A stretch of DNA of 64,000 bases from an uncultured Candidatus Saccharibacteria bacterium. Lineage in GTDB: Bacteria > Patescibacteriota > Saccharimonadia > CAILAD01 > CAZGYV01. Shown piece after piece: positions 9,129 through 63,831 of this stretch. Position 1 is the stretch's first letter; every line of letters begins with the position of its first letter. Where the stretch lies: assembly GCA_964530725.1 (NCBI GenBank), contig CAZGYV010000001.1, positions 15,829-79,828 of the forward strand. Direction: 5' to 3'. Below the pieces are notes generated by a model. The model saw only the letters and a list, made by a program, of their open reading frames with translations, did no database searches and was not told where the DNA came from. Both the position numbers and the translations under genes were made by a program.

Positions 9129-9154
9129 ATATCTGCCAAAGAATAAGGGTTAAC

Positions 9155-10971: not shown

Positions 10972-11005
10972 GAACCTGGCGTCCTAACCGCTAGACGATG
11001 GGACC
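10931..11005 (-). tRNA. tRNA-Glu (anticodon CUC), 75 nt with encoded CCA
   Basis: Manual cloverleaf: acceptor GGTCCCA/TGGGATC, D-arm GTCT-AGCGGTTA-GGAC, anticodon arm CCAGG-TTCTCAT-CCTGG, T-arm CGGGG-TTCGATT-CCCCG, discriminator A, then CCA. Confidence 0.9.
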
Positions 11006-23117: not shown

Positions 23118-24237
23118 CTTGGCTCGCTACTCGTTCACAATGTTTTTTCAGCTCTTTAGCAAATATTTTTTGGTCGAATTTTTTCGCTTGTTTGACGAAA
23201 ACTTTTTTATCAAACGCAATGCCCTCAGCTTTTTCAATCGCCCAATTTAGGGCCTCAGCTGTCGCATTGTCAAAAAATACACCGGTTTTCATGTCAATAA
23301 CAGTCTCTCGAACACCACCTTCATTCAAGGCAATTACGGGCGTACCGGCAGCCATCGCTTCGACCGGCGTAATACCGAAATCTTCCACGCCTGGAAAAAT
23401 AAAGCTCTTAGCAAGGCGCAATAACTCAACTTTGCGAGACTGGCTGACACGGCCGACAAAAGATATATTTGGGGCTTTTTTTGCTAACTCGCGTAGCCTT
23501 AGCTCGTCCGGGCCACTGCCGGCGATGACGAGCGGCTTTTTATTGTGAGCAAAAGCTTCGATTGCCAGCTCAATATTTTTGTACTGGCTTAAAACTGACA
23601 ATATTAAGTAAAAATCTTGCTTGATAGTTTTGTATTGGCCATCAAAAAGTTCGGTCGCGACTGGCGGATAGACCACTACCGCTTCGCGCCGGTAGTATTT
23701 TTTTATTCTGCCGGCGATGTACTTGCTATTAGCAATAAATAAATCAACATTCTTCGAGGCCCGATAGTCCCATAGCCGCAGGTCCGACACTAGTTTGCTA
23801 ACAAAATATTTACCAATCGGACCGAGCTTAAAGCGACCGACCGATTGCGTATCAAGATATTTTGGCCAACTGTCCCAAAGCATGCGCGCCGGACTGTGGC
23901 AGTAGCAAACGTGCTTGGTGTTTTTACCGACATTAACGTTCTTAACCCAAGCGGTTGAGCTGGAAATTACCAAATCGTAGCTGCTTAAATCGATTCTATT
24001 GACGGCTCGCTTAATAAACGGCAGTAGTAGTTTAGGCTGTCGCTTCAAAAAGTCAGGTAGGTTTTGCAAGCTACTCGTCCTAACCCGCCGGCCGCCTAAA
24101 AAGTTACCAAATTTCTGATAATCACAAATTAGCGCGTACAGATCTGCTTCGGGGTAAATTTGCGCTAGTTCAAAAAAAACTGCCTCCGCACCGCCTATCT
24201 TGGTATTTAGCCAGTCATGGATGATAGCTACCTTCAT
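23101..24237 (-). CDS. glycosyltransferase family 4 (GT-B)
   Basis: MKVAIIHDWL..GGAE N-terminus and the EDFGITPVEAMAAGTPVIA (E-x7-E) motif. Confidence 0.85.
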   Translation of the reverse strand: MKVAIIHDWLNTKIGGAEAVFFELAQIYPEADLYALICDYQKFGNFLGGRRVRTSSLQNLPDFLKRQPKLLLPFIKRAVNRIDLSSYDLVISSSTAWVKNVNVGKNTKHVCYCHSPARMLWDSWPKYLDTQSVGRFKLGPIGKYFVSKLVSDLRLWDYRASKNVDLFIANSKYIAGRIKKYYRREAVVVYPPVATELFDGQYKTIKQDFYLILSVLSQYKNIELAIEAFAHNKKPLVIAGSGPDELRLRELAKKAPNISFVGRVSQSRKVELLRLAKSFIFPGVEDFGITPVEAMAAGTPVIALNEGGVRETVIDMKTGVFFDNATAEALNWAIEKAEGIAFDKKVFVKQAKKFDQKIFAKELKKHCERVASQDVKAK

Positions 24238-25523
24238 GCCCGCCTGCCATGGTGAATGCCCAAGATCGCAAATAGCACGATCGCTAGCGTACTGTCGCTA
24301 AAACTATGCAAAAACATGTTGGTTGAAGCCAGGCCAACTATACTGGCGAATAAACTAATGCTAGCCAGATTTTGGCTGCTTAGGCCCTCGCGTAGCAACG
24401 AAATCGCATTAAATCCTAAAAAGGCCAGGAACAGTATTAAGCCAACCAGCCCAATCTCGATCGCGATCTGCAAGTACCAGTTCTCGGTAATGAGTGATTT
24501 AGCGGCGTAATAACTCGCCGGACCGGCGGCGCCCAGCCCCTTGCCTAAGGGGTTTTCGACTACTGTGGCGACTCCGCCCTCGAGTGACTTAAGCCTAATC
24601 TGGTCAGAACCTTTGAGCGTGTTATCGCTGCAGCTGCCGTGCAATAAGTAATATTGGACGATGTTATTGGGGTTGCAGAAATTGCGGCTTGTCACAAATA
24701 GCAAGCCTCCAGTCAGGGCTATCACGACAGCAATGATTATTTTTGGCCGCCAAGATTTCTTAACGCCTAAAAATACAGTTACAAGGATGGCCAAGGCCGC
24801 TCCCAGCCAAGCGCTACGTGAATAGGTCAAATACAAACCGGTAATTAAAGTAGCTAAAATCATGGCTTTTTTCGTATCAAATTTATCGACTAATCGCCCC
24901 GTCACCAAAGTTATTGGTAATATCAGATAGGCACCGAGCTGGTTTGGCCCTCCGAGGGAGGAAAAAGCCCGTCTTACCATGGTGGCGGAATCGACATATT
25001 GAGCCGGTATAATGGTGGTTTCGTTGTAGCCAAGTGTCCTTAACATTTCAGGCGTGATCGCGAAGCTTTGTAAAATAGCTAGTAGGGCCACGATTAAGGC
25101 CGGCCAGACCACCAAATTATATACTTTTTGATCATTGAATCTTGAAGCGACGACCTGTGCCACCACGAATATTACTAGTGGCATTAAGTCTGTTTTGATA
25201 CCAAAAATAAAGGCTGTCAGCGAGCCGAACCTTATCAGGCTGACAGCTAGTGCCAGGACAATGATAGCTGCCACTAGGTAATTGACGCGGTCGAGCTTTG
25301 GCCTATTGCCTGGGTGTTTAAAGATGTAGAAGGCGCCCACCGCGGCTATTACTAGAGCCACTATCTCCTTCCAGGCCTGCCAGACAGGACCCATGCGCGA
25401 AAGACTGCCCAGGTAAGTCGTAAAGAAAGCATGAAAAGGCATCAGAGCTATCAAAACGACTAAGCCGCCGTAGATGATTTGTTCGGCGGATATTTTTTTT
25501 GTCATGATTGATCTAATTTTCAT
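24234..25523 (-). CDS. O-antigen ligase/polymerase-like (Wzy_C) polytopic membrane protein
   Basis: About 10 or more TM segments. YLTYSRSAWLGAALAILV matches the Wzy_C/O-antigen-ligase loop signature. Confidence 0.7.
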   Translation of the reverse strand: MKIRSIMTKKISAEQIIYGGLVVLIALMPFHAFFTTYLGSLSRMGPVWQAWKEIVALVIAAVGAFYIFKHPGNRPKLDRVNYLVAAIIVLALAVSLIRFGSLTAFIFGIKTDLMPLVIFVVAQVVASRFNDQKVYNLVVWPALIVALLAILQSFAITPEMLRTLGYNETTIIPAQYVDSATMVRRAFSSLGGPNQLGAYLILPITLVTGRLVDKFDTKKAMILATLITGLYLTYSRSAWLGAALAILVTVFLGVKKSWRPKIIIAVVIALTGGLLFVTSRNFCNPNNIVQYYLLHGSCSDNTLKGSDQIRLKSLEGGVATVVENPLGKGLGAAGPASYYAAKSLITENWYLQIAIEIGLVGLILFLAFLGFNAISLLREGLSSQNLASISLFASIVGLASTNMFLHSFSDSTLAIVLFAILGIHHGRRA

Positions 25524-26533
25524 CGGTTTGAGATAACGCTGCGCATGTATTCGTCTAGGTTTTCCAGGGCGATGCCGGTACCCTTGGCCACGCAGAGCAG
25601 CGGCTCCTCGGCCACATAAGCCGGTACACCAGTCACCTTGGTCATCAGTTTGTCGATGTTGCGCAGCAAGCTACCGCCACCTGTCATCACCATGCCGCGG
25701 TCAATAATGTCGCTTGAGAGCTCAGGCGGAGTCTGCTCTAAGACCACCTTGACGGCCATGATGATCTCATCTAGCCGATCGTTGATCGCCTCGGTCACCT
25801 CGGATGAATCAAGGCTGACTGTCTTGGGAAGACCGGCAATCATATCGCGGCCGCGAATTTGCATTTGCATCGGCTTATCAAGCGGCATGGCCGAGCCAAT
25901 TTTAATTTTAATCTCCTCGGCTGTCTGATCGCCGATTACGAGGCCGTACTTGCGGCGAATATAGTCGCTAATGGCCTGATCTATCTTGTTGCCACCCACC
26001 CGCACGCTATTTTGAGCCACAATCCCGCCCAGCGAGATAATTGCTACTTCGGTCGTGCCGCCACCGATATCAACGATTAAGTTGCCTGCTGGAGCGGCGA
26101 TTGGCACGTTGGCGCCGATCGCGGCGGCCAGTGGCTCGCGAATAATGTGAGCCTTTTTAGCACCAGCGGCCATAGCCGCATCGATGACAGCCCTTCTCTC
26201 GGTGGAGGTGACACCGGCCGGTATGCTGATCATTAACTCCGGCCTACTTAAGCGAAAGCTGCCCGACACTTTGTTAATAAAATGCTTCAACATGGCTTGG
26301 GTGATACGGTAATCAGCAATCACGCCGTCGCGCAGCGGCCGGTTGGCAGTAATAATATCAGGTGTGCGACCGAGCATTTCTTTAGCTTCATTGCCAATCG
26401 CTACAATCCGATTATCATCGACACTAATAGCCACCACGCTCGGCTCATTAGCTACAATCCCTTTTTTCGGCAAGTAAACCAAAATATGAGCGGTTCCTAG
26501 GTCAATTGCGATTTGTTTTTTGAACATCGACAT
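25520..26533 (-). CDS. mreB: MreB/Mbl-family actin-like protein (paralog 1)
   Basis: IAIDLGTAHILVY, NEPSVVA, DIGGGTTEVA and MTGGGSLLRNIDK; 337 aa. ATGA-type overlap with the downstream Wzy-like gene. Confidence 0.9.
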   Translation of the reverse strand: MSMFKKQIAIDLGTAHILVYLPKKGIVANEPSVVAISVDDNRIVAIGNEAKEMLGRTPDIITANRPLRDGVIADYRITQAMLKHFINKVSGSFRLSRPELMISIPAGVTSTERRAVIDAAMAAGAKKAHIIREPLAAAIGANVPIAAPAGNLIVDIGGGTTEVAIISLGGIVAQNSVRVGGNKIDQAISDYIRRKYGLVIGDQTAEEIKIKIGSAMPLDKPMQMQIRGRDMIAGLPKTVSLDSSEVTEAINDRLDEIIMAVKVVLEQTPPELSSDIIDRGMVMTGGGSLLRNIDKLMTKVTGVPAYVAEEPLLCVAKGTGIALENLDEYMRSVISNR

Positions 26534-29316: not shown

Positions 29317-30441
29317 CTAGCTAACTTCTGGCAGCCGCGGCCGGCTGTCGTTTTTTGGTGTACTCTGCGGACTGGCCGGGTCATTTGCATCTTCACCCGG
29401 TGTGAAAAAGGCAATAATTTTACCAAAGAATGTTCGAATTTGCTCGCCAAAGCTCGGTACTTGACCGGGCAGACTGACTGATTCTACTGCCTTACTGTCG
29501 GTTAGCTGCGGCTGAACCTTAGCCGAGGGCAGCGGCTCGATCTGTTTGGCCACGACTATCAATCGCTTCCAACTGGTGCCCGGTGGCGTACAGGTGATAA
29601 GAGTTAGGGTTGGTTCGCTGGTCTGATTTAGTACCGATAAATCATTTGGCAGCACTACTTTTGTTTCGGTCACTTCGTAGACATATTTTTTGGAAGAATA
29701 ATTGATCTGCACTTTGTCGCCGACAGCCATTTTATCGAGCAAGGCAAAGACGAACTTGTAGTTACCCGGCTCCCACCAGTCATTGCTAGAGTGCCCGACA
29801 ATCACCACGTTGCCGACTTCTCCAGGGACGGCGGTACCGGCATAGTGCACGACACCGTTTTGAAGGGCTTTTTGAATATTACTCTCCTGCTGGCTTGGCT
29901 CCATGACGAGTGGCGCGCTGGAGTTGATTTTGGGAATTGTGACGATATTTTCGGGGGGCACGATTTCCACAGGTGTTGGCGTAGTGTTAACTTCTTGCGC
30001 TTCGGTCGGTAGGTTGACGCTCTCGCTGACCTGCGGTGGATTGAAGAGGTAGTTAATCTGCGAGATGATCATCGGCGCGTTAAATACCAGCGCGAATACG
30101 ACAAAGCTAGCCAGGCCAATGCTAATAAACTTGAGCCGGCTTTTGGTGAAAATCTTTTTAAGCTTCAGTCTGTCCGCTATTACCCCCAAGCGAGTACTAA
30201 TAGGATGATTTCTTATGTGATATGTCACTCGGTGGCGCATGCGTTCGGGTATCTTACTAGGCTCGGGAACGTCCGCTGATAGTGGCATGGGCTCGGCTTT
30301 TTTTGGTGGTGGCGGCGGTGGCGGAGCTATCTGAGTCCCGCGACCAAACAAAATAGCCTGGGCTTCCAATTCAGCCTTGGTTGGTTTATGCTTGTGAGAA
30401 GCCGATCCGTCGGTCTCGTGACTAGGATGTATTGTAGACAT
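29317..30441 (-). CDS. sortase-family transpeptidase
   Basis: VIVGHSS (His), TLTLITCTP (catalytic Cys, TLxTC) and an N-terminal TM anchor. Start MSTIHPSHE is chosen because the longer track ORF overlaps tRNA-Leu. Confidence 0.8.
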   Translation of the reverse strand: MSTIHPSHETDGSASHKHKPTKAELEAQAILFGRGTQIAPPPPPPPKKAEPMPLSADVPEPSKIPERMRHRVTYHIRNHPISTRLGVIADRLKLKKIFTKSRLKFISIGLASFVVFALVFNAPMIISQINYLFNPPQVSESVNLPTEAQEVNTTPTPVEIVPPENIVTIPKINSSAPLVMEPSQQESNIQKALQNGVVHYAGTAVPGEVGNVVIVGHSSNDWWEPGNYKFVFALLDKMAVGDKVQINYSSKKYVYEVTETKVVLPNDLSVLNQTSEPTLTLITCTPPGTSWKRLIVVAKQIEPLPSAKVQPQLTDSKAVESVSLPGQVPSFGEQIRTFFGKIIAFFTPGEDANDPASPQSTPKNDSRPRLPEVS

Positions 30442-30504
30442 AATTATACTTTTACAACTCTGATATAATCTATTATAATACAGGAGTTTTGTTAGAACTT
30501 CCAA

Positions 30505-30591
30505 GCCAGAGTGGTGGAATTGGTATACACGCACGACTCAAAATCGTGTGGAGGCAACTCCTTGTGGGTTCGAGTCCCACCTCTGGCACCA
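30505..30591 (+). tRNA. tRNA-Leu (anticodon CAA), 87 nt, long variable arm, encoded CCA
   Basis: Acceptor GCCAGAG/CTCTGGC, anticodon arm CACGA-CTCAAAA-TCGTG, variable arm GGAGGCAACTCC, T-arm TGGGTTCGAGTCCCA, then ACCA. Confidence 0.9.
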
Positions 30592-38000: not shown

Positions 38001-39218
38001 TTATATTTTAGATTTGATCACTTCTAGAGCCCGATCGAGCTGCGGGTCACGACCGGCATTGTAGTCTTGGTCCGATTGTTTGACCTCGACATCTGGCTTA
38101 ACACCTTCTTTTGAGATATTAACGCCTTTTGGTGTATACCAGTGCGCGACAGTTATCTTGACAGCCGTACCGCCCGACAAGTCGAAAAGTTGTTGCACGC
38201 TGCCTTTACCAAAAGTCTTCTCACCTACCAATGTAGCCCGATTGTTATCACGCAGAGCGCCAGCCATAATCTCCGACGCCGAAGCACTGCCGCCGTTAAT
38301 TAGCACCACGACGGGTAAATTAGTCATCGAGCCACCTGGAATAGCTCGGTGGACGATACTATTTTCTTTGCGCGAACGTTGCTCAACGACCACGCCGTCA
38401 CTTAAGAATTCACTGGTGACATCAACTGCGCCCTGCAGATAACCACCTGGATTATTGCGTAAATCTACCACCACACCGCGGGCGCCCTGACGCATTAGCT
38501 CTCTCGCCGCCCCATCAACTCGCTCGACCGTGTCGTCGCCAAAGCGGCTGATTTTAATTAAGCCGATATTACCAGTCTTTAGCTCGGATTTCACACTCTC
38601 GACGGTGATCTCATCGCGAGTTATTTTATATTCCTTGGGGTCGCTACTACCTCGAATAATCGTTAGTTTTACCTCGGTGCCTTTTTCGCCGCGAATTTTT
38701 GACACCGCCACGTCGAGCGACATGGCCGAGGTTTCTTCGTCATTGACAGCCACGATAATATCACCGGCCTGAACGCCAGCTTTGGCCGCCGGCGCATTGT
38801 CAATCGGTGCGATCACAGTTAATTTATCGTTTTTAATGCCAACTTCGATACCAACACCCTTGAAGTTGCCCTTAAGATCGCTGGAGAGCTCTTGGGATTG
38901 CTCGGCCGACAAGAAAGCTGTGTAGGGGTCGCCCAATGATGCTACCATGCCCGCGATCGCGCCTTCGACCTGTTTGTCACTACTAATATCACCGTCAAAA
39001 TGCTTGTGCAGCAGCCCGTTGACCTTCCAGTACTCACTCATGTCATGCTTACTTTTAGTTGAATTAGTGCCAAGAGCACCAATGCTAATATTGGGGTTTA
39101 ACTTGCTAAACAAAAATCCCAACGCGAAAGTTACTATTCCAACGACAATAATTTGCGCTAAATGATTATTTTTCGGCCGCCCGTGATTGGGCGTCTGATT
39201 TGTGGCATTATCCTTCAT
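38001..39218 (-). CDS. S41-family C-terminal processing peptidase
   Basis: PDZ (PAAKAGVQAGDIIVAVNDE), VVLINGGSASASEIMAGAL (catalytic Ser) and TFGKGSVQ (Lys). Confidence 0.9.
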   Translation of the reverse strand: MKDNATNQTPNHGRPKNNHLAQIIVVGIVTFALGFLFSKLNPNISIGALGTNSTKSKHDMSEYWKVNGLLHKHFDGDISSDKQVEGAIAGMVASLGDPYTAFLSAEQSQELSSDLKGNFKGVGIEVGIKNDKLTVIAPIDNAPAAKAGVQAGDIIVAVNDEETSAMSLDVAVSKIRGEKGTEVKLTIIRGSSDPKEYKITRDEITVESVKSELKTGNIGLIKISRFGDDTVERVDGAARELMRQGARGVVVDLRNNPGGYLQGAVDVTSEFLSDGVVVEQRSRKENSIVHRAIPGGSMTNLPVVVLINGGSASASEIMAGALRDNNRATLVGEKTFGKGSVQQLFDLSGGTAVKITVAHWYTPKGVNISKEGVKPDVEVKQSDQDYNAGRDPQLDRALEVIKSKI

Positions 39219-43399: not shown

Positions 43400-44620
43400 T
43401 TATTTTTTCCAGCTGCGCAGGGCGTCTTTGAGGGCTTTTTTACCTTTCAGGTAAGTGTAGCCAACGTAGCTTAGACCGCTCATGCCCAGTACTCCGGCAC
43501 CGGCACTCTCAATACCAGTTTGTGGTATTTCGCCGCCGCCAGCAATCACTGGTGCGCTTGGCGTTGGGGTGATTACTTCACCAGGTGTTACAGGTGTTGG
43601 GGTTGGTGTAGGTGTAATCGATGGCGTGACTGTTGGAGTTGGAGTCGGGGTAATAGTTGGGGTTGGCGTAGGAGTCACGCTTGGAGTGGTGGTAGGAGTT
43701 GGTGTAGGCGTAACTTTCGGCTTTTTAACCTTGACGATCGCCTTGTCACAACCCTTTTGGTTGTCATTGGCAGTGAAGCAAGCTTCGTTGTCAATGTAGG
43801 TGCCACCTGGTGTGTTACCATCAACGTTGACAGTAATAGTAACGTCTTTGATTTGATTTGGAGCCACATCAGGGTAGTTGAAGTTAATTACCCGAGTGGG
43901 GTCGCCATTGGCGAGCTTCACTTCGGCTGGCAGCGGGTCGGTCATCTTAATACCGGTTAGCGCGCCAGTACCAACGTTGGTCATATAGACAACGTACTTC
44001 AGCTTGTCGCCAGCTTCGACTTCCAAGGCAGTTTCCTTGGTGTCGGCAGCGTAAGCGGTGTTGGCATCTTTACTGAGGTTGATAACACGCTTATAAATCT
44101 GGCCAAAAGGCTTGTTCATCGGCTTGATGGGGTTACCGCAAGACTTGATGATCGCCCAGTGGAAAGTACCACCTTCCATGCTAACAAAAGCTGGCAAGGA
44201 ATTGGAGTTAAACGATACGGCTGGCGGACGCATCCACAGCGAACCGTCTTTGGTCGAGTTCTGCAAGAACTCACGGCCGGAGCTAAAAACTCCAGTACCT
44301 ACTTGAGCACCGTTCACCCAGACAGAGCCGTCTTTGCGAACTTCGCCCTCGACGGTGTTCGGACTCATAATGCCGGCTTCGGTGATACCGCGGCCTTCAT
44401 TGTAATAAATCTGCTTGAGGTTGGCCGATGAATTCGCACCATCGCCACCATTAATTTTACTGATTAATTCTTGCTTATCAGCCGCGCCACATTTCATCAC
44501 AGCATTGCTGTCACAGTCGCGGGCAGCGTCAACTTTAACTAGTGGCAAGACTATCGAAGCCACCAGTAGCAAAGCGCTAACAATACCAATCAATTTGGTA
44601 CTAATTTTGCCTTTCTTCAT
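43400..44620 (-). CDS. sortase-anchored surface protein (PQTG sorting signal) with Thr/Pro linker
   Basis: Signal peptide (LIGIVSALLLVASIVLPLVKVDA), a DUF11-like beta domain, a (TP)n linker, and C-terminal IPQTG plus a hydrophobic stretch plus KGKKALKDALRSWKK. Confidence 0.8.
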   Translation of the reverse strand: MKKGKISTKLIGIVSALLLVASIVLPLVKVDAARDCDSNAVMKCGAADKQELISKINGGDGANSSANLKQIYYNEGRGITEAGIMSPNTVEGEVRKDGSVWVNGAQVGTGVFSSGREFLQNSTKDGSLWMRPPAVSFNSNSLPAFVSMEGGTFHWAIIKSCGNPIKPMNKPFGQIYKRVINLSKDANTAYAADTKETALEVEAGDKLKYVVYMTNVGTGALTGIKMTDPLPAEVKLANGDPTRVINFNYPDVAPNQIKDVTITVNVDGNTPGGTYIDNEACFTANDNQKGCDKAIVKVKKPKVTPTPTPTTTPSVTPTPTPTITPTPTPTVTPSITPTPTPTPVTPGEVITPTPSAPVIAGGGEIPQTGIESAGAGVLGMSGLSYVGYTYLKGKKALKDALRSWKK

Positions 44621-44665: not shown

Positions 44666-44694
44666 ATTCTACAAGACAAAAGCATTTTTGTCAA
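44666..44694 (-). promoter_or_regulatory. sigma70-type promoter of the surface-protein gene
   Basis: On the minus strand: TTGACA (44694-44689), a 17-nt spacer, then TAGAAT (44671-44666). An SD AGGAG lies in front of ATG 44620. Confidence 0.6.
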
Positions 44695-44791: not shown

Positions 44792-44840
44792 GGGGACCCC
44801 CTTCTAGTCGTTTTTTGATAAACGCTAGAAGAGGGTCCCC
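44792..44840 (-). terminator. long GC-rich hairpin ending the high-GC operon
   Basis: GGGGACCCCCTTCTAGTCG / CGCTAGAAGAGGGTCCCC: ~17 bp with one mismatch and one bulge, 12-nt loop, 25 nt after the last stop codon. Confidence 0.55.
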
Positions 44841-44865
44841 TTGAACTTGTCAGAGGTGGTCTTGG

Positions 44866-45780
44866 CTAGTCGCCAAAACCGCCAATGTTTGTCGAGCCGT
44901 CGATGCCACCGGCCCCATCAGGGGCTTGGCCGGTTTGGCCGTGCCCCGCGTCGGGGTTGCCGGTGGCCTTGGTGCCACCGCCGGCGATTGAGCCACCACC
45001 ACCATTGCCACCACTAGGTGGCGGACTGGTTGGCGGAGGACTCGTCGGGGGCGGTGGGTTGTTCGGTGGAGGCGGTTGAGCGATTGGCGGCTGAGCTACC
45101 GTACCGCCGCCGCCAGCGTTGGCTGGAGGTACCGGTGAGGCTGGGCCAGCCTGAGTGGCTGGATTGCCTTGCGGTGCTGATGCAGGGTCTGCCTGCGGCT
45201 CGCCGGCCGGAGCCGAACCAGTTGCCTGACTCTGTGCCGCGTCCGCCGCCGGCTCGCCTACTACTGACGTAGCGGCTTCCGAGCTGACAGCCGATGGCGC
45301 ATCCTGGACAACAGCTGCCGGAGTCTCGGTGGGAGCCGGTGTGACCACCGTATCTCCTCTCAAGCTCCAGTTAACCACCGCACCAGCTACCAGCAGCGCG
45401 ACTGCCAGCAAACTGACACCCACGCGGCGACGGAACTGAGACCAGTCCCGCCGATCAGTCTCGGGCACCGTCTTGGGACGGGCCTTGACTGGTCGCACCA
45501 GCGTCAGGGGCTTGACCTTGGTCGCTGGCTCTGGGATTTCCGGTAGCAGCGAGACAACGTCTACGATCACGACATCCGAAAGGATGTGCGTGGTCGTCGC
45601 TGGCGGGCTAGCTGACTCGATGACAGCCAGCGCCATACTGGTCGTCGGCGAAGCTTCCTCTTCCTTGGTCGAACCGTAGAGCACCGGCAGCGCTGTGCTG
45701 TCGGGCTTGAGGAACGATTGCAGATCGAAGACCTGCGCTTCCGCTTCCTCGAACTTCGTGGCCGTCAGTGTCTCTGCCAC
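44866..45780 (-). CDS. membrane-anchored, Pro/Ala/Gly-rich disordered protein (304 aa), hypothetical
   Basis: GTG start after GGAGGggata, overlapping the upstream TAG (TAGTG). Central TM helix (VGVSLLAVALLVAGAVVNW), a long P/A/G/S/T-rich region, and a C-terminus GGIDGSTNIGGFGD. Confidence 0.55.
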   Translation of the reverse strand: MAETLTATKFEEAEAQVFDLQSFLKPDSTALPVLYGSTKEEEASPTTSMALAVIESASPPATTTHILSDVVIVDVVSLLPEIPEPATKVKPLTLVRPVKARPKTVPETDRRDWSQFRRRVGVSLLAVALLVAGAVVNWSLRGDTVVTPAPTETPAAVVQDAPSAVSSEAATSVVGEPAADAAQSQATGSAPAGEPQADPASAPQGNPATQAGPASPVPPANAGGGGTVAQPPIAQPPPPNNPPPPTSPPPTSPPPSGGNGGGGSIAGGGTKATGNPDAGHGQTGQAPDGAGGIDGSTNIGGFGD

Positions 45781-46082
45781 TATCCCCTCCTTCTCGTTTG
45801 GCGGCAACCAGACTTCTCGGCCCGACGCATGCTGCGCGCGAGTTTGGGATCTCGCATCAACATTCGCCGGGTGTCGGCCATGGCTTCACTCTCCCAGTGC
45901 TCTTGGCGCAACACGTCAAAGTGCTGGGTGATCTTGGCCTGACGTTCCTTGGCGGCCTTGGCGCGCTTGCTCTTTCGACGAGCCTTTTTCAGCCAGCGAG
46001 CGGCGTGAACCGCTACGACATAGCTGAAGATTAGCCCGAGTAATACGGCAGCAATCCAGAATTGAGCCGAGTTTTCACTCAT
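45780..46082 (-). CDS. small TM + highly basic protein (100 aa), hypothetical
   Basis: MSENSAQFWIAAVLLGLIFSYVVAVHAARWLKKARRKSKRAKAAKERQAK... The ATG lies 1 nt after the upstream TGA (TGAGATG). Confidence 0.5.
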   Translation of the reverse strand: MSENSAQFWIAAVLLGLIFSYVVAVHAARWLKKARRKSKRAKAAKERQAKITQHFDVLRQEHWESEAMADTRRMLMRDPKLARSMRRAEKSGCRQTRRRG

Positions 46083-46083
46083 C

Positions 46084-46593
46084 TCAACCCCCAAAGCTGC
46101 CGACGTTGGTCGATGTCCCCATCTGGCCATTGCCAGATGGGCCCTGGCGAGCGCCGCCGTAATTGGCGGTCTCGCCGTGTTGGGCGTCCGAGACGTGCTG
46201 CGAGCCCTTGCTCGAAGCGCCACCCGACGAACTACCACCAGGTCCTTGCTTGGGAGTGGACGACGATTTGCCACCTCCTCCACCTGGGGCCGGTGATTCA
46301 CCACTACCGTCTCCACCACTGCCGCCACCTGGTGGTGGCTCGGCTTCTGGAGGGGGTGCCGGCGGCAGTGTGGTCGGTGACACTGTTGTTGTAGGCGGCG
46401 TGGTCGTTGTTGTCGGAGCTACCGTTGTGGTGGTGGCTTCGGTCGATGACGGCGGTGCCGCGTCGCTTGCCGACATGGGGCGGACTGCCACCATCGCCAG
46501 CACCGTAATCCCAACGATCGCGGTCGTAACGATGAGAGCGATATTACGTACCCTCATCGGGTCAATGAAGCGCAAGGGTTGCAAGCGAGCCAT
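46084..46593 (-). CDS. membrane-anchored Thr/Pro/Gly-rich disordered protein (169 aa), paralog-like to 44866..45780
   Basis: SD GAAAGGG. N-terminal anchor NIALIVTTAIVGITVLAMVAV, then T/P and G/S runs, and a C-terminus GQMGTSTNVGSFGG. Confidence 0.55.
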   Translation of the reverse strand: MARLQPLRFIDPMRVRNIALIVTTAIVGITVLAMVAVRPMSASDAAPPSSTEATTTTVAPTTTTTPPTTTVSPTTLPPAPPPEAEPPPGGGSGGDGSGESPAPGGGGGKSSSTPKQGPGGSSSGGASSKGSQHVSDAQHGETANYGGARQGPSGNGQMGTSTNVGSFGG

Positions 46594-46704
46594 TGCTTGC
46601 CCTTTCTACTAGACAATATGTTGACAAGTTTCACTGCTTTTAAGGGATTTAAAAGCAGATTCAAGCCGTCAAGCAGTATTATACTCCTATCAAAGAATGA
46701 TTGG

Positions 46705-46745
46705 GTGACCCCTCCCATCTCAGGTAGTGAGACGAGAGGGGTCAC
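46705..46745 (-). terminator. perfect GC-rich hairpin inside the high-GC block
   Basis: GTGACCCCTC (46705-46714) pairs with GAGGGGTCAC (46736-46745), with a nested TCTCA/TGAGA stem. Lies 35 nt after the stop of 46780..47400. Confidence 0.5.
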
Positions 46746-46779
46746 AGTTGGACATGGACATGGGACAAGTTAGGTTTGC

Positions 46780-47400
46780 CTAGGCAACCTGGCTGCTGGG
46801 TGGAGCGAGCTGCTCCGTCGGCCGGTCGACCTCCTGGTCAGATGAGTCGGCTACCCAGCGGCGAAGACGGATAACCGTCTTCTGTAGCTGGGCGGCTAAC
46901 GCCAAACCGAGCAGCCCACCGGCCATCACCACCCCGAGGTAGATCCCCCAGGGAACGGCAAAGTCACGTTCAGTGGCAGCCTCGATGCTGTGCTCGAAGC
47001 TTCCAGCCAGCAGCCAGAACCCAAGCCAGGAGAGAACCGCACCGCCAATGATGAACAGTGCCATCAAGGCACCGCCAACACCTTCGCGGCCAATTTCGGC
47101 CTCACCGGTGATGCGGCTGAGTGCGATCTGCTCGATCCAGTTTCGCAACTGCACCAAGTAGTCGCTGACGCCGTGGATCTGTTGGTTGACCCCGGCAAGC
47201 CCCTTGGTGGTGTTCTCGTGCTGCCACATGAAGGCATCCCGGGTGGCCGGATCGGCTACCGCGTCGAACGGACTGGCTTGGGCCTGTGGCTGATTGGTGT
47301 CGTCGGCAGCACTTCCGCCACCTTCAGCACCATTCCAGCCGGTCCTCGCCTGCTCCTGGCCGTCGAGGACAGAGTCAACAAAGTCTGGTGTTATCTGCAT
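46780..47400 (-). CDS. two-TM membrane protein (206 aa), hypothetical
   Basis: Perfect SD (AAGGAGGaaatcATG). TM helices GGALMALFIIGGAVLSWLGFWLLAG and WGIYLGVVMAGGLLGLALAAQL. Confidence 0.55.
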   Translation of the reverse strand: MQITPDFVDSVLDGQEQARTGWNGAEGGGSAADDTNQPQAQASPFDAVADPATRDAFMWQHENTTKGLAGVNQQIHGVSDYLVQLRNWIEQIALSRITGEAEIGREGVGGALMALFIIGGAVLSWLGFWLLAGSFEHSIEAATERDFAVPWGIYLGVVMAGGLLGLALAAQLQKTVIRLRRWVADSSDQEVDRPTEQLAPPSSQVA

Positions 47401-47414
47401 GATTTCCTCCTTAA

Positions 47415-47981
47415 CTACATGCCCAGATCGGCAGCGACCCTTTTGATCGTCACTCGAGCATCCTCAGGCGACAAGCCGACGTTGGCCAAGCAGGCGTAAG
47501 CCAGCCTGACTGCTCGACTGTTGGCCTCATCCTCCGCACCATCGCGAAAACGTCGAATGGCCGCCTTGGCGGCAGACTCCTCGTTTTTCGCTATCTCGCG
47601 CTGCCGCTCGCTAATGTCGAGCAAGCGCTCAAGCTCAGCAATCCGAGCTTGCAGGAGACTCAACTCCTGCTTCATGTCACCGAGCAGACGACTGTCTTGC
47701 TCGAGAAGCTTGCGTTGCTTCTCAACGTGACCCTCCAGCTTTTTGGTGTAGTCGCGCCATTTGGTATCGATGGGCTGACGCTCCTCAAGGGGGTTGTCAG
47801 GCACAGGCTGCGGAGGCTCAGGCGGAGTCACCACCTCAATCTGGTCGGTGATCTCCTCTGACTCCACTGGCACCTCTACCGGCGGAACGTATTCAGCCGA
47901 CTGCTCTTCAGCAGCTCGGGCTTCGGCCTCAGCGGCTGCTTCAGCTGCGATGGCGTCCAACTCGTCCATGTCAAAATTCAT
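47415..47981 (-). CDS. acidic N-terminus + coiled-coil protein (188 aa), hypothetical
   Basis: Start MNFDMDELD after GGGAGcgaaa. Contains an EAAAEAEARAAEE run, a Pro-rich spacer and a heptad-like region KKLEGHVEKQRKLLEQDSRLLGDMKQELSLLQARIAELERLL. Confidence 0.5.
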   Translation of the reverse strand: MNFDMDELDAIAAEAAAEAEARAAEEQSAEYVPPVEVPVESEEITDQIEVVTPPEPPQPVPDNPLEERQPIDTKWRDYTKKLEGHVEKQRKLLEQDSRLLGDMKQELSLLQARIAELERLLDISERQREIAKNEESAAKAAIRRFRDGAEDEANSRAVRLAYACLANVGLSPEDARVTIKRVAADLGM

Positions 47982-48085
47982 TTTCGCTCCCAATGTAAGG
48001 AACTTCTCTTGAAGCTTTTGCCTCAGAGTCAGCCAAGGATTTTGAAAAATCCTCAAGCTGATTACTAACGCAAAATGCTAGGGCA

Positions 48086-48120
48086 AGGGATCGGGCACTC
48101 GATATGAGCACCCGATCCCT
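48086..48120 (-). terminator. perfect GC-rich hairpin after the first gene of the high-GC block
   Basis: AGGGATCGGG (48086-48095) pairs with CCCGATCCCT (48111-48120): 10 bp perfect, 15-nt loop. Confidence 0.5.
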
Positions 48121-48137
48121 CACTTACCCCTCCAACT

Positions 48138-49118
48138 CTACTCGCGCACAGTCTGCCGAATGGCCGTTTTCACCAGTCTGATGGCGGCGGTTGGCGTCAC
48201 TCGCCACTTTTCGACAAACACCGGATAGTGCTCGTCGATGAGACAACGGTAACCATCTTGTCGCTCCTGGGCGTGGCGCTCGGGGTCGTCATGCAGCTTG
48301 TGCAGATCGGCCCAGAGACCCTCAGTCGCGCGGGCAACATCACGACACTCGTCGTGCATTAACGCCCATGACAGCGGCTGCGGGCCAACCTTTCGCTTGC
48401 CACGGCGCTGGCTGCGCTTGGAGTCAGGATTAGGCAAGGTCGCCCGCCCGTCGATCAGAGCATTGAGCCTACCACGATCACGTGGCGGCATAGCCTGACC
48501 GCAGAGTGCGCAGTTTGGCACAGCCAGCCAGAGCATCGAAAGATACTTCTCCAGTCGCTCCTGAGTCCGCCGCGAAATGCGGTAAAACCGAAGCTCCGGA
48601 TTGGTTGCTCGTTGCTCAGGTGTCAGCAGTGCCCGCTCCTGATACCACTCGAATGAAACGCGAATCTCTTCGCGCGGATCGAGCAGATCGCGGTAGGCGA
48701 AGTTTCGCCCCCGCTGCTCGACTTCCTCTGGTATCCAGCCCGGGCCAGCCGTCTGTAGCACACTGATAGCCTCGGATAGCTTATCGACCAGCCTGTGGTC
48801 GACATCGCGTGGCTCGGGCGCTACTTGGAAGCGCCAACGCCACTCAGCCTCACGGCTGGTGAACGTCGGCTGCGGTCGAACGATCTCGGTCGAGGTGCTC
48901 GTCACGACCTTTCCCTCCTGATCATTCGCGATCTCGGCTTGGTTTTCCAGTGCCTGCCGCAGCAACGCTGCCTCGCTTGATATCAGCATCGAGTTGTCAC
49001 GCAGATCGCGCTTGACACCAGCCGACGGAGCGAGCTTGAGCAGCTCCTTCGGCGTAATGCCGAGGTCATCGGCTACCTTGTCGAGTCGCCGACGGACCGC
49101 AACTTGAGGATTACCCAT
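48138..49118 (-). CDS. hypothetical protein (326 aa), possible DNA-binding/regulatory protein
   Basis: SD AAGGAG. The N-terminus VRRRLDKVADDLGITPKELLKLA is HTH-like. Also has a Cys pair (CALCGQ) and a basic patch SKRSQRRGKRK. I recognise no family. Confidence 0.5.
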   Translation of the reverse strand: MGNPQVAVRRRLDKVADDLGITPKELLKLAPSAGVKRDLRDNSMLISSEAALLRQALENQAEIANDQEGKVVTSTSTEIVRPQPTFTSREAEWRWRFQVAPEPRDVDHRLVDKLSEAISVLQTAGPGWIPEEVEQRGRNFAYRDLLDPREEIRVSFEWYQERALLTPEQRATNPELRFYRISRRTQERLEKYLSMLWLAVPNCALCGQAMPPRDRGRLNALIDGRATLPNPDSKRSQRRGKRKVGPQPLSWALMHDECRDVARATEGLWADLHKLHDDPERHAQERQDGYRCLIDEHYPVFVEKWRVTPTAAIRLVKTAIRQTVRE

Positions 49119-49427
49119 TTATTTTCTCCTTATCTGGAGTTGATTCACCTGGGGGCCGGTGACGCCAAAAATTTAACGCCACAACGGGCACCGCAAGATG
49201 CCTCTATTCCATCGGAGAAAATCTGAAGAAAATCGGAAATCCGACTTGATTAAAGGGCAGAATGCTGCCGTCAATTAAGAAATAACAGCACGATTCCACC
49301 CTTCACTCTCGTCAAAATATTCCTGAGTGATATTTGAGTAGTTTTGGAGTATATTAATTTGCTAGCGTTTGTCACTCAATAACTTAGGTGAAAACGCCGA
49401 TGTTTTAATCTACTATATTTATCAATA

Positions 49428-49459
49428 TTTGTCAAGTGTTTCTAGGGTTGTTATGTTTA
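49428..49459. repeat. right copy of collinear direct repeat flanking the high-GC block
   Basis: TTTGTCAA (49428-49435) and TTGTTATGTTTA (49448-49459). On the minus strand the first word reads TTGACAAA (-35-like). Confidence 0.6.
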
Positions 49460-60895: not shown

Positions 60896-61948
60896 CTACC
60901 GCGGTGTTTTTTCATATTGGGTGGAGACCAGCACATCCTTCAAACTATCAATATCCTCCAAGACCAGCCCCGTACCCCGTACCACCGCAGTCAATGGATC
61001 CTCGGCAATATGAATGGGCATCTTGGTTTGTTGATTTAGTAGTTTGTCTAGTCCGCGCAGCAAAGCCCCACCGCCAGCCAAATAAATGCCCTTGTCCATG
61101 ATGTCAGCGATCAGCTCAGGCGGCGTTTCCTCGAGAGTATTTTTAACCGCGTCGACGATCGAGCGCACGCTTTTGGCTAACGCCTGACGTACCTGATCGG
61201 ACGTAATAATGATTTCCTTTGGCAGGCCGGTTACGATGTCACGACCGCGGATCGGTGCCTCGATTTCCTCATCGATCTTACAGGCTGAGCCGACATTGAT
61301 TTTAATAGCTTCTGCCGTACGCTCACCTACCTGAAGATTGAATTTCTCCTTAGCATAGTTGATGATATCCTCGGTCAGTTCATCACCAGCAATGCGAATC
61401 GAGCGACTGGCCACGATCCCGCCCAAGCTAATCACCGCCACTTCACTGGTGCCGCCACCAATATCAACTATCATCGAGCCGGCGGCCTCATGCACCGGCA
61501 GGCGACTGCCGACTGCTGCTGCCATCGGCTCCTCGATCAGGAAAGCTTGGCGCGCGCCGGCGTTAGTAGTAGCGTCTTCGACCGCTCTTTTTTCGACTTC
61601 GGTCACTCCCGAAGGAATACCAATCACGACCCGCGGGCGGGGAAAAAAGGCGAAGCTCTCTTTGTGAACCTTCTCAATAAAATACTTAAGCATTTGCTCG
61701 GTGATTTCAAAATCACTAACAACGCCGTCGACCAAAGGCCTCGAAGCGACAATGTAAGCCGGCGTCTTACCGACCATCGTCTTGGCCTCCTCGCCGATCG
61801 CTAAAATCTGCTTCGTCTTAGTATTGATCGCGACCACACTGGGCTCGTTGATAATTATCCCCTTACCACGAACATAGACCAAGGTGTTTGCCGTACCCAG
61901 GTCTATGCCAATGTCGTGCGAAAATCTTCCTAGAATTTTTTTTAACAT
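60896..61948 (-). CDS. mreB: rod shape-determining protein MreB (paralog 2, canonical mreBCD context)
   Basis: IGIDLGTANTLVYVRGKGIIINEPSVVAI, DIGGGTSEVAVISLGG and LAGGGALLRGLDK. Confidence 0.95.
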   Translation of the reverse strand: MLKKILGRFSHDIGIDLGTANTLVYVRGKGIIINEPSVVAINTKTKQILAIGEEAKTMVGKTPAYIVASRPLVDGVVSDFEITEQMLKYFIEKVHKESFAFFPRPRVVIGIPSGVTEVEKRAVEDATTNAGARQAFLIEEPMAAAVGSRLPVHEAAGSMIVDIGGGTSEVAVISLGGIVASRSIRIAGDELTEDIINYAKEKFNLQVGERTAEAIKINVGSACKIDEEIEAPIRGRDIVTGLPKEIIITSDQVRQALAKSVRSIVDAVKNTLEETPPELIADIMDKGIYLAGGGALLRGLDKLLNQQTKMPIHIAEDPLTAVVRGTGLVLEDIDSLKDVLVSTQYEKTPR

Positions 61949-62011: not shown

Positions 62012-62749
62012 TTAACTGTTCAAAAGTACAAAAAAAGCAATGGAATTGTTGAGCGTGTGCAGTATAATTCCTGGCCCAATCGAACGAAACCTAATATACA
62101 TAATCGACAGAATAACACCCAGTATGAATGTATAGATACCAACATTGACTTGCATGTGCATGGCGCCGAATAGCGCGCTGGAGAGAATAACACCAGCGAA
62201 ATTACCCCATTTAGCACTAAAAGGCGGCAACAAAAAACCGCGAAAATAAACTTCTTCAATAAATGGCGCGATCAATACCGATACGATGAAGCTGCCTATC
62301 AAGCCTGCTCCCCTGCGACCAAGCTCGAAACCACTTTTCTGTGTCTCATTAAGGTTAATCTGCGGCAGCAGCACACTCACCAGCAGATAAACTACAAAAA
62401 GTACGGCTACAAAAAGTACAAATAGCGTAAGAATCGTTAAGAGCGCCCGCCAAACATTGAACCGGCGTAAACCAAAATCAGCTAGCTTAAGTTTGTAACG
62501 ACGCTTTACCCCAAAAAGCAAGCCTACTTCGATTGCAATACTCATGACAATCCTCGTCAGAGCCGAGGCGACGCCATCACCTAATATAAACTTCGATACA
62601 GTAGACGGCAAAATCCCCAGCTTAGCCATCCCAATCGTCGAGAGTAAAATCATTAGCGGAATAATCACCGTCAAGGCCACCACTACAAATGCCGCCGAAG
62701 CGGACCAGCTAGTGCCGGCAAACGAGCTTTTTTTCAACCAGCCGATCAT
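62012..62749 (-). CDS. CPBP-family intramembrane glutamic endopeptidase (CAAX protease-like)
   Basis: APFIEEVYFRGFL (EExxxR), FGAMH and HTLNN motifs. Confidence 0.85.
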   Translation of the reverse strand: MIGWLKKSSFAGTSWSASAAFVVVALTVIIPLMILLSTIGMAKLGILPSTVSKFILGDGVASALTRIVMSIAIEVGLLFGVKRRYKLKLADFGLRRFNVWRALLTILTLFVLFVAVLFVVYLLVSVLLPQINLNETQKSGFELGRRGAGLIGSFIVSVLIAPFIEEVYFRGFLLPPFSAKWGNFAGVILSSALFGAMHMQVNVGIYTFILGVILSIMYIRFRSIGPGIILHTLNNSIAFFVLLNS

Positions 62750-63831
62750 CGCAAACGCGTAATATCAGTCACCGATACGATTATCATCAGAAGGATTAGA
62801 GCAGCAAAGCCGGCAATATGAACGAGATTCTCGACCCGCCCACTCACTTTTAAGCCCATCTTGTCCAGTACCACGATTAGCAAACGTCCGCCATCGAGAG
62901 CTGGAATGGGCAAAGCATTGATAATAGCAAGCGATAGTGAAATCGAAGCGACCAGAGCTATCAGGTAGCGCCAACCAAATTTAAACACTTCCCCGAAAAT
63001 TGCCGTAATGCCAATCGGGCCAGTCACGCCCTCACTGACTTTGGCGTGCAAAAACAAATTAGTTATAAGCCCGCCAAAAGCTGCCAAGGTCGCCCAAGTC
63101 ATTTGGCCTATCATCACAGCCGCAGCCAAGGGCGCGGCCCACCAATCGTAGCGGTAAAGCTGCTCGGGCATTGTCGCGACGCCGAATATGCCATTGCCAC
63201 TATCTTGCCCCGGCAGGCGCACAATTACGTCACGCTGGCGCTGATCACTCTCAACCACGAACCGAACTTCAGACCCAGCATGAGACTTTGTGAAATTACG
63301 AAATCCTTCGACCGTCGTGACCGCCTCGCCATTGGCAGACAATATCCAATCACCAGTCTTAAGACCAGCTTGTTGCGCCAAGGAATCTTTACTGACCTGC
63401 AATACCATCAAGTGATTTGGCCCCATGGCGTGTGGCTGGACTGGGCCGAAAGCCGGCATCGAGCCGGTAATAAGCGGCGGCATGCCAGTGGCTACTAGTA
63501 GTGTCACCAGTAAATAAGCGAAAATTAAGTTCATTGTCACGCCGGCTAGAAGAATCTTTGTCTTCACCCAGGCCCGCTGACCACTAAAACTATCCTTTGA
63601 TTTGTCGTCACCGGTTTCACCTTTGATTTTGACAAAACCGCCTAGCGGCAAAGCGTTTACGCTGTACAAAACGCCGTTCTTCTTCTTGCCCCACAGGCGC
63701 GGCGGGAAGCCGACACCAAATTCATCGACTCTCACGCCATTACGCCGAGCAACTACAAAATGACCCCATTCGTGAATCACTACTAAAAAGGTAAAAACTA
63801 AAAGAACCGCCAAAATCGTAAGTATAATCAT
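62746..63831 (-). CDS. rseP: RIP metalloprotease RseP (M50 site-2 protease)
   Basis: VIHEWGHFVVAR (HExxH), an internal PDZ (GLKTGDWILSANGE) and NALPIPALDGG. Confidence 0.9.
   Translation of the reverse strand: MIILTILAVLLVFTFLVVIHEWGHFVVARRNGVRVDEFGVGFPPRLWGKKKNGVLYSVNALPLGGFVKIKGETGDDKSKDSFSGQRAWVKTKILLAGVTMNLIFAYLLVTLLVATGMPPLITGSMPAFGPVQPHAMGPNHLMVLQVSKDSLAQQAGLKTGDWILSANGEAVTTVEGFRNFTKSHAGSEVRFVVESDQRQRDVIVRLPGQDSGNGIFGVATMPEQLYRYDWWAAPLAAAVMIGQMTWATLAAFGGLITNLFLHAKVSEGVTGPIGITAIFGEVFKFGWRYLIALVASISLSLAIINALPIPALDGGRLLIVVLDKMGLKVSGRVENLVHIAGFAALILLMIIVSVTDITRLR

Follow-up and report, generated by a model that had tools for sequence, protein, structure and literature searches.

Saccharibacteria live attached to other bacteria, and few facts are available on the envelope proteins that mediate this attachment. 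Type IVa pilins carry a C-terminal, disulfide-bonded loop (the D-region) that binds receptors at the end of the pilin, while steric zippers and low-complexity aromatic-rich kinked segments (LARKS) are short beta segments rich in Gly, Ser, Asn and aromatic residues that associate with themselves, as does SSTNVG of human IAPP. Envelope proteins with long low-complexity linkers and a short conserved motif near the C-terminus are known as substrates of sortase (LPXTG), exosortase (PEP-CTERM) and rhombosortase (GlyGly-CTERM); a passage of PMC4617865 describes signals of the sortase type as tripartite, with the motif followed by a hydrophobic stretch and then by positive charges. In membrane proteins, extracytoplasmic Ser/Thr-rich intrinsically disordered regions (IDRs) can work by way of their glycosylation and of their disorder as such (PMC12041528), and AesB, an Esx effector of oral Actinobacteria, has conserved C-terminal motifs, needed for its function, behind a Gly-rich IDR that is variable (PMC13622651). 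Here we describe, in a stretch of 64,000 nucleotides (nt; "the window") of contig CAZGYV010000001.1 (assembly GCA_964530725.1) from an uncultured Candidatus Saccharibacteria bacterium, two closely spaced genes for membrane-anchored proteins of 169 and 304 amino acids (aa), the short and the long tail protein, which end in a related peptide.

In their design, the tail proteins resemble the IDR-bearing membrane proteins and AesB, and they are members of neither group. With the former they share membrane association and an extracytoplasmic, compositionally biased disordered region rich in Ser, Thr and Pro in a monoderm cell. In the described proteins, however, the IDRs are appended to folded domains of known function, whereas here the IDR makes up almost all of the ectodomain and has a conserved peptide at its end. 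By analogy, the stalks formed by these regions are plausible targets of O-glycosylation. With AesB they share the arrangement of a Gly-rich IDR, variable in length and sequence, that precedes a short conserved C-terminal region, which in AesB carries the function. Unlike the tail proteins, AesB is a secreted Esx substrate of a host bacterium, has a helical N-terminal secretion domain and lacks a transmembrane (TM) anchor, and there is no sequence relation between them.

The two tail proteins share a C-terminal module

The 169-aa protein terminates in ...GNGQMGTSTNVGSFGG, ending GTSTNVGSFGG, and the 304-aa protein in ...GAGGIDGSTNIGGFGD, ending GSTNIGGFGD. When compared by BLASTP, the two aligned with E=4e-4 over their last 33 residues only, the aligned rows being DAQHGETANYGGARQGPSGNGQMGTSTNVGSFG (169-aa) and DAGHGQTG------QAPDGAGGIDGSTNIGGFG (304-aa). 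The in-register score of the tails was matched by 48 of 200,000 composition-preserving shuffles of the ectodomains. Furthermore, each ectodomain contains a single Phe, which is the third residue from the end in both proteins, and STN[IV]G.FG had no further occurrence in a six-frame translation of the 64-kb window. An earlier annotation of this stretch (the original prediction) had called the proteins paralogous, which at the level of sequence holds for the C-terminal ~33 residues; the remainder is a resemblance in architecture and composition.

The tails were then compared with those of a syntenic relative, the Logan assembly L005, which has orthologues of all cluster genes and a PrfB protein that is 76% identical to that of the window. 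In the 169-aa protein, 37 of the 42 tail residues (88%) are identical in L005, against 69% in the N-terminus, 50% in the TM helix and 57% in the stalk. For the 304-aa protein the corresponding values are 33 of 46 (72%) in the tail, 44% in the N-terminus, 36% in the TM helix and 59% in the stalk. Third codon positions hold 15 of the 21 nucleotide differences in the tail of the 169-aa gene. In addition, synonymous sites in the tail codons differ between the two window genes, and the match between the tails is therefore not the product of very recent gene conversion. These comparisons support the view that the conserved C-terminus reflects selection rather than drift.

This much of the original prediction, which had interpreted the conserved end as a sorting, processing or docking signal, was borne out, while its focus on the terminal decapeptide was not. 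Judged by the alignments, the functional unit would be a module of ~35-45 residues, of which the decapeptide is the local version. The most widely conserved element of this module is [DG]-A-x-H-G-x-[TS], located 21-28 residues before the stop. A scan for [DG]A.HG.[TS] over the window and the loci of its relatives (237 kb, six frames) returned 14 occurrences, all of them in syntenic tail genes and all 21-28 residues before the stop, and the distance to the stop is maintained in six independent genes. STNVGS in the 169-aa tail and the G-x-F-G end of both tails also recall steric zippers and LARKS, which would fit a pairing of tail with tail; the resemblance, however, extends over 6-7 residues only, and the tails of other clades look different.

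The tails differ between clades at a syntenic locus

Relatives of the locus were reached via conserved neighbours, namely a DUF11 surface protein and the 90%-identity clusters of FtsX and FtsE. An adjacent pair of a long and a short tail gene upstream of the DUF11-IPQTG gene was found in L005, L009 and L019/L021/L023, with the order in the last three (long, then short) being the reverse of that in the window. The more distant lineages L025, L028 and L014-L017 have other genes at this position. Within a genome the tails are alike, and between clades they differ (Table 1): STN[IV]G.FG characterizes the window clade, SAGS[KA] together with C-x12-C characterizes L009, and VDL[DN] characterizes L019/L021/L023. 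Even in L005 the ends have changed, by F to I plus an extra Asn in the short protein and by N to T in the long one. The exact terminal motif is thus limited to the nearest relatives, and the extreme C-terminus is clade-specific. The original prediction had staked its claim on the motif recurring at the C-termini of homologues: it does so, with small changes, in the closest orthologues, while the distant ones lack it.

Table 1. C-terminal ends of the tail proteins encoded by relatives of the window.
Lineage	Clade or PrfB identity	Short tail protein	Long tail protein
L005	window clade	...STNVGSIGGN	...GGSSTVGGFGD
L009	PrfB 51%	...VTDAQHGETCPADTTHPDGDGNCVTGGESAGSK (199 aa)	...GGNCSDPNAHANGDGTCSTGNGTSAGSA (310 aa)
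L019/L021/L023	PrfB 71-74%	...HTVGSGPGGTAKT.PNQ..Q.VDLN[QN] (171-175 aa)	...SCP.G.HLVSGG.C.SN.G.VDLD(Q) (280-288 aa)
L010		no short protein (single gene)	tail of the single gene: ...DGAGHGTTSNNNATPNDPGHDTSTIDSTVTF

The two L009 proteins align with each other through the tail at E=9e-5, as expected of paralogues, and the C-x12-C loop is present in both. Lying a few residues from the C-terminus, this loop is reminiscent of the D-region of type IVa pilins; unlike pilins, the tail proteins have neither a pilin fold nor a prepilin leader, and those of the window clade contain no cysteines at all. In a matrix of short-versus-long tail scores, the top values fell within clades. The shuffle test applied to each genome gave p-values of 4e-4 for the window, 0.06 for L005, 0.012 for L009 and 0.02-0.14 for L019-L023, by which the rule of matching tails replicates, if only modestly, beyond the genome in which it was discovered. 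V[ST]DAQHGET was the sole link of the 169-aa protein to L009 (E=0.003). Because the similarity between clades is weak, orthology to the L009 and L019-L023 clades was deduced from synteny, architecture and short motifs.

Database searches returned no homologues among 5.8 billion proteins overall. Specifically, an exhaustive phmmer search with the 304-aa protein against 1.84 billion representatives retrieved only the protein itself, and a profile of five tails had no match even at E<=10. Word-indexed homology searches found no match for the 169-aa protein and only itself for the 304-aa protein. Both queries were swamped by low-complexity words, and these searches understate the family since they missed even the L005 orthologue. 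Of 465 pattern matches to the 169-aa alignment in JGI metagenomes, none was confirmed. A sequence search of the PDB with the tail gave nothing meaningful, and searches of Pfam, NCBIfam, PHROGs and PADLOC with all cluster proteins, taken from several lineages, returned sub-threshold noise only. The tail proteins constitute an orphan family, so far undescribed and narrow in its distribution, that has a simple signature.

The tail genes are real and encode membrane-anchored disordered proteins

The tail genes belong to six closely spaced minus-strand open reading frames (ORFs) from 49.1 to 44.9 kb, in the order p326, p213, p206, 169-aa, 100-aa and 304-aa. Their coordinates, strand and termini were as originally described. 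The 304-aa ORF starts with the GTG at 45780, preceded by AGGAGG at a distance of 7 nt, and independent gene callers picked identical 169-, 100- and 304-aa products on four metagenome contigs, including this GTG start. The 100-aa ORF, for a TM protein with a basic tail, is coupled on both sides, as had been proposed: its start is joined to the preceding stop as TGA-G-ATG, and its end shares one base with the next start as TAG/GTG (TAGTG). In L005 its counterpart (6543-6644; MSENSAQFW...) retains the TM helix and ends at ~33 aa, and no counterpart was found in L009 or L019-L023. The 100-aa protein is thus not conserved as part of the cluster, nor is its long basic tail conserved.

The cluster is GC-rich and full of shadow ORFs, among which a plus-strand ORF of 149 aa shares its wobble positions with the 169-aa gene; the original prediction had itself allowed for the possibility that such ORFs are the true genes. 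In a frame-by-frame comparison, the annotated frame was the only one of the six that is free of stops in both the window and L005. Its ratio of nonsynonymous to synonymous differences (pN/pS, window versus L005) was the lowest of the six frames in all four genes tested. For the 169- and 304-aa genes this ratio was 0.32 and 0.48, against 0.45 and 0.54 in the antisense shadow frame that shares their wobble positions and contains stops. The plus-strand shadow ORFs are ruled out as true genes by their stops and their higher pN/pS. Because the annotated frames are stop-free in two species and have the lowest pN/pS, we conclude that they are the real ones and that the tail genes are under purifying selection. 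The dN/dS values against L005 (NG86 method) were 0.18 for the 169-aa protein, 0.28 for the 304-aa protein, 0.22 for p206, 0.23 for p326 and 0.32 for p213.

Each tail protein has one hydrophobic helix, and in the hydropathy scan Lys and Arg were found exclusively on its N-terminal side, which by the positive-inside rule indicates an orientation with the N-terminus inside and the C-terminus outside. This single anchor and the low-complexity tracts that follow it agree with the original description. The ectodomains consist of 72-77% Pro, Gly, Ser, Thr and Ala and 6-9% hydrophobic residues, with an entropy of 3.2-3.3 bits. Single-sequence AlphaFold2 modelling of the 169-aa protein produced one confident helix (residues 12-36) and coil otherwise. 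As to a cleavable signal peptide, this protein has a basic n-region and a hydrophobic stretch of ~21 residues, while an AXA-like site is not conserved (the window has PMSA/S, L005 has TPT/S). The helix of the 304-aa protein appears to be a signal anchor, since a cytoplasmic region of 117 residues precedes it; this region holds a motif, EAQVFDL..FLK....LPVLY, that is common to the L005 orthologue.

A proposed tethered linear motif and its alternatives

We tentatively favour the explanation that the tail is a linear motif at the C-terminus of a disordered stalk that spans the wall and tethers it, although we rate its likelihood as somewhat below even. The tail genes would encode lineage-specific bitopic envelope proteins of a monoderm cell, each held in the membrane by its N-terminal signal-anchor helix with the N-terminus inside. 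A stalk of 90-120 residues, disordered and rich in Pro, Thr, Gly and Ala, would reach into or through the cell wall. The sole part constrained in sequence would be the module of ~35-45 residues, which begins with [DG]-A-x-H-G-x-[TS] and, after a further 21-28 residues, closes in the window clade with STN[IV]-G-x-F-G. This module would be a "tip" peptide, docking onto a partner located outside the membrane. Since the tips are shared and change together between clades, both proteins would bind the same variable partner or each other. The N-terminal domain of the DUF11 protein is unlikely to be a co-evolving partner: it is 59-62% identical between clades with unrelated tails, and the partner would therefore have to be more variable.

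Several points weigh against this explanation. Surface exposure and binding are what we infer, and the partner is a putative one. In the single-sequence AlphaFold2 model, made for the 169-aa protein only, the tail has no predicted fold (predicted local distance difference test, pLDDT, ~45-50). The match of the 304-aa protein to its 310-aa counterpart in L009 is weak (E=20), and BLASTP found no significant match between window and L019 proteins or within the L019 pair. Moreover, matching tails could come from gene conversion or from independent duplications, and a processing site would equally be expected to keep a fixed distance between the motif and the C-terminus. That last point belongs to the main rival explanation, which we consider unlikely but by no means negligible: the proteins would be tethered pro-peptides in which [DG]-A-x-H-G-x-[TS] is cut by a protease, and the last 21-28 residues would be released as a signal or antimicrobial peptide or removed in maturation. 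In every lineage the motif keeps its distance from the stop while the sequence downstream of it is clade-variable, an arrangement resembling the junction between the conserved leader end and the variable core in precursors of peptide pheromones or of ribosomally synthesized and post-translationally modified peptides (RiPPs). The tails are rich in Gly, Ser, Thr, Asn and Cys, and the window encodes two extracytoplasmic proteases, the S41 C-terminal processing peptidase Ctp (38001-39218) and the M50 protease RseP with a PDZ domain (62746-63831). However, even the residues that follow the motif are 88% conserved between species whose PrfB proteins are 76% identical, and the precursors, being 169-373 aa long and anchored in the membrane, are unlike those of known pheromones or RiPPs. 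In addition, ctp and rseP are part of an ancient housekeeping synteny, and the conserved cluster contains no modifying enzyme, dedicated protease or peptide exporter, nor any maturation gene recognisable by Pfam, NCBIfam, PHROGs or PADLOC. Conversely, the tail might have no specific function and its match might be a remnant of common descent or of occasional gene conversion, with the ectodomains acting by their bulk properties as spacers or as a wall-hydrating, possibly glycosylated brush. The genes are adjacent paralogues, their segment is GC-rich and prone to recombination, an allelic cassette lies beside it, the match within a genome is marginal in L005 and L019/L021 (p 0.06-0.14), and a mode of action through glycosylation or disorder has its precedent in the Ser/Thr-rich IDRs of PMC12041528; glycosyltransferase genes are present in the window (22275-25523), and nothing ties them to the tail proteins. 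We nevertheless regard this as decidedly unlikely, as in both proteins the tail is clearly more conserved than stalk, TM helix and N-terminus and has gathered synonymous changes, as the tail codons of the paralogues have diverged at synonymous sites, and as the spacing of motif and stop is kept in six independent genes.

Regulated proteolysis or transmembrane signalling, in which the long protein would be an anti-sigma factor or a sensor of the regulated intramembrane proteolysis type, the tail its sensed or protease-recognised element and the cytoplasmic Zn protein p326 its output, strikes us as quite improbable. The architecture of the long protein, with ~117 cytoplasmic residues, a TM helix and an extracytoplasmic disordered region, would suit such a role, as would its cytoplasmic motif conserved in L005, the presumed operon shared with the CxxC/HxxC protein p326, and the presence of RseP and a Ctp-type PDZ protease in the genome. 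On the other hand, the 117-aa cytoplasmic part has no Pfam or NCBIfam domain (zf-HC2, RskA and RsgI included), and no match to an anti-sigma, sigma or helix-turn-helix family was obtained in these databases. No sigma factor gene lies in the cluster in any lineage, the short paralogue has the same tail and yet nearly lacks a cytoplasmic part, and the AlphaFold2 model of p326 is poor and uninformative (pLDDT 48). Most improbable, in our view, is the sorting signal of the original prediction, here a new C-terminal signal for sorting or anchoring, read by dedicated and as yet unrecognised machinery by which the proteins would be fixed to the wall or exported. Two proteins that are otherwise of low complexity have a conserved sequence at their very C-terminus, which invites this interpretation, and the genes adjoin that of a sortase substrate with a genuine signal (IPQTG, TM helix and basic tail) in a window that also encodes a sortase (29317-30534). 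Sortase-type signals, however, differ from the tails in layout: both tail proteins are already anchored by their only, N-proximal helix, and the motif ends 1-2 residues before the stop, without a hydrophobic helix or basic cluster after it. They also differ in conservation, since the signal of a conserved enzyme should be conserved, whereas the terminal residues vary in close orthologues (FGG, IGGN and FGD; the L005 proteins end SIGGN and SSTVGGFGD) and are unrelated in L009, L010 and L019-L023. These differences exclude the canonical sorting signals of the sortase or exosortase type; no NCBIfam sorting-signal model matched, and no enzyme that could read such a signal accompanies the pair across clades. 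An RTX-like type I secretion signal finds no support either, given the N-terminal TM anchor and the lack of an RTX match in Pfam or NCBIfam; the conserved cluster contains no ABC exporter or membrane fusion protein, ftsEX being housekeeping. Likewise, Gly-Asn repeats of the PE/PPE type (NxGxGNxG) had no Pfam match, and the tails have one N[IV]G.FG and no repeat array. All in all, the tail does not look like a signal that is read by a conserved sorting machine.

Genomic neighbourhood of the tail genes

The features of the locus are listed in Table 2. Wherever a lineage has the tail genes, they are located directly upstream of the gene for the DUF11 protein ([IL]PQTG, PT linker), which is followed by prfB. 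The DUF11 gene is the only non-housekeeping neighbour conserved beside them, with synteny in L005, L009, L010 and L019-L024. It has a promoter-like site of its own (44666-44694), and its product ends in IPQTG, a hydrophobic stretch and KGKKALKDALRSWKK. The hairpin 3' of the 304-aa gene probably marks the end of the operon.

Table 2. Positions in the window of the tail genes and associated features.
Feature	Position	Strand	Description
Short tail protein "S", 169 aa	46084..46593	minus	ATG 46593, stop 46084-46086; basic short N-terminus, one TM helix, Thr/Pro/Gly/Ser-rich disordered ectodomain, conserved C-terminal module
TM anchor of 169-aa protein, residues ~17-38	46480..46545	minus	Kyte-Doolittle scan; N-in/C-out; AlphaFold2 helix pLDDT 87-93
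C-terminal module of 169-aa protein, residues 128-169 (SKGSQHVSDAQHGETANYGGARQGPSGNGQMGTSTNVGSFGG)	46087..46212	minus	includes DAQHGET 46168-46188 and STNVGSFG 46090-46113
Long tail protein "L", 304 aa	44866..45780	minus	~117-aa cytoplasmic N-terminal region, one TM helix, Ala/Pro/Gly-rich disordered ectodomain, conserved C-terminal module
TM anchor of 304-aa protein, residues ~118-142	45355..45429	minus	Kyte-Doolittle scan; N-in/C-out; 4 K/R before helix, none after
C-terminal module of 304-aa protein, residues 259-304 (...GGGTKATGNPDAGHGQTGQAPDGAGGIDGSTNIGGFGD)	44869..45006	minus	includes DAGHGQT 44932-44952 and STNIGGFG 44872-44895
100-aa small protein	45780..46082	minus	N-out TM helix, residues 5-31; poly-basic cytoplasmic tail with 9 K/R after helix
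Strong RNA hairpin	44792..44840	minus	just 3' of the 304-aa stop; minimum free energy -38.2 kcal/mol, z=-7.1; 0/200 shuffles fold as well; no U-tract
DUF11 surface protein	43400..44620	minus	Pfam DUF11, NCBIfam TIGR01451; PT linker, IPQTG + TM + basic sortase signal; downstream of 304-aa gene
p206	46780..47400	minus	cytoplasmic N-terminal part and two-helix membrane hairpin (TM scan); in allelic cassette
p213	47415..48056	minus	probably 188 aa from ATG 47981; acidic, coiled-coil-like cytoplasmic protein; second cassette gene
p326	48138..49118	minus	cytoplasmic, conserved CxxC...HxxC (invariant Cys and His in alignment); first gene of presumed operon
Two sigma-70-like promoter matches	49348..49435	minus	upstream of p326; consensus scan, 10/12 matches each; consensus matches only

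The DUF11 protein of the window is 91% identical to that of L005 (7842-9059; dN/dS 0.05, pS 0.58), compared with 73-76% identity and pS of 0.73-0.74 for the housekeeping proteins that flank it. Against L019-L023 it is ~61% identical, though PrfB reaches 71-74%. Judged by these values, the comparison suggests either a very strong constraint on this segment or its exchange between lineages.

The locus is embedded in core genome, with hpf, secA and murD (TIGR01087 equivalog) upstream, and DUF11, prfB, ftsE, ftsX, a CHAP hydrolase gene, the S41 protease gene ctp and pyrG downstream. Elsewhere in the window we found serS, lysS, greA, the gene for PBP2, mreBCD, rseP, the sortase gene and pilin-like genes. 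A search for a protease or secretion gene that co-occurs with the tail pair, which the original prediction had proposed as a check, yielded none that is specific: secA, murD, ctp and rseP represent housekeeping synteny, and secA and murD are not adjacent to the cluster in the L019-L024 clade, where genes for a PP2C protein and DUF5663 precede it instead. The Mur-ligase neighbour, considered as a possible tail-modifying enzyme, is a plain MurD equivalog and is missing from the locus in other clades. The possibility of a prophage or defence island was rejected in view of the absence of viral, PHROG and PADLOC matches and the synteny of the cluster in diverged genomes. Rfam had no match in the 43-50 kb region, nor did the p326 alignment in viral contigs.

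Upstream of the tail genes, p206 and p213 constitute a sharply bounded two-gene allelic cassette (~46,800-47,950) in otherwise identical strains: L001, L002, L003 and L007 are ~58-70% identical to the window over 1.1 kb and 99-100% identical for kilobases on either side. The alleles share 52% (p206) and 61% (p213) of their amino acids, and the window holds no second copy. The first gene of the cluster, encoding the cytoplasmic Cys/His protein, has two unrelated-looking forms, one in L019 (2494-3243) and the other in L021 (2377-3054) and L023 (2608-3288). These are a p326-like form (LWLA..C.LCG...LMHDEC) and a different CxxC...HRLC protein, and the difference looks like a replacement of the cassette type. 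The p326 homologue in L019 (249 aa) was recognised by eye and is unscored.

In every lineage, the GC content of the cluster (0.58-0.77) exceeds that of the genome (0.46-0.54), as measured at 44,850-49,200 in the window, 3500-7500 in L005, 7500-9500 in L009, 4000-6500 in L010 and 2494-6493 in L019. In the window, GC at third codon positions is 0.61-0.72 in the cluster versus 0.51-0.58 in the flanking genes. One transfer long ago does not account for an elevation that persists in this way at a syntenic locus, and amino-acid composition accounts for only part of it.

Three further observations concern other parts of the window. The region 4001-11005 is probably an integrated mobile element: its GC content is 0.40-0.41 versus ~0.48, and its genes include one for a 1223-aa YobI-like P-loop NTPase (4082-7753) and one for a large serine recombinase (9373-10971), whose 3' end overlaps a tRNA-Glu gene (10931-11005, minus strand). 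An 847-aa protein (19682-22225, minus strand) combines an N-terminal CxxC...CxxC zinc ribbon, a disordered region of ~700 residues rich in Pro, Ser, Thr, Lys and Gln, a TM helix and a C-terminal DUF4367; this layout is anti-sigma-like, with the long disordered part N-terminal to a single C-proximal TM helix. Finally, the window encodes two MreB paralogues, one at 25520-26533 beside murA-like and glycosyltransferase/Wzy genes, and the other at 60896-61948 in a canonical mreBCD-PBP2 operon.

Implications

Conceivably, the locus could serve epibiotic Saccharibacteria as a specificity device, in which two wall-spanning tethers with matched tips would pair mutually or with a variable partner, such as a surface structure of the host cell. 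The clade-wide switches of the tail, together with the allelic cassette and the conserved, adhesin-like DUF11 protein, would then set the partner or host. We regard this wider scenario as very improbable.

Together, these findings define a small, fast-evolving gene cluster, which in several lineages of Saccharibacteria neighbours the gene for a highly conserved surface protein anchored by sortase. Constraint on the two disordered membrane proteins of the cluster is almost confined to a short peptide at the C-terminus, and this peptide changes concertedly in the two paralogues. Should the tail not be a docking element, what is left is a well-documented orphan family and the caution that a conserved C-terminus on a low-complexity protein does not by itself make a sorting signal. 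The interest of the locus would be moderate to low unless the matched tails are a recognition device. If the tail is indeed a docking element, it would offer a compact handle on surface recognition in bacteria of the candidate phyla radiation, consisting of ~35 residues that could be swapped between clades.

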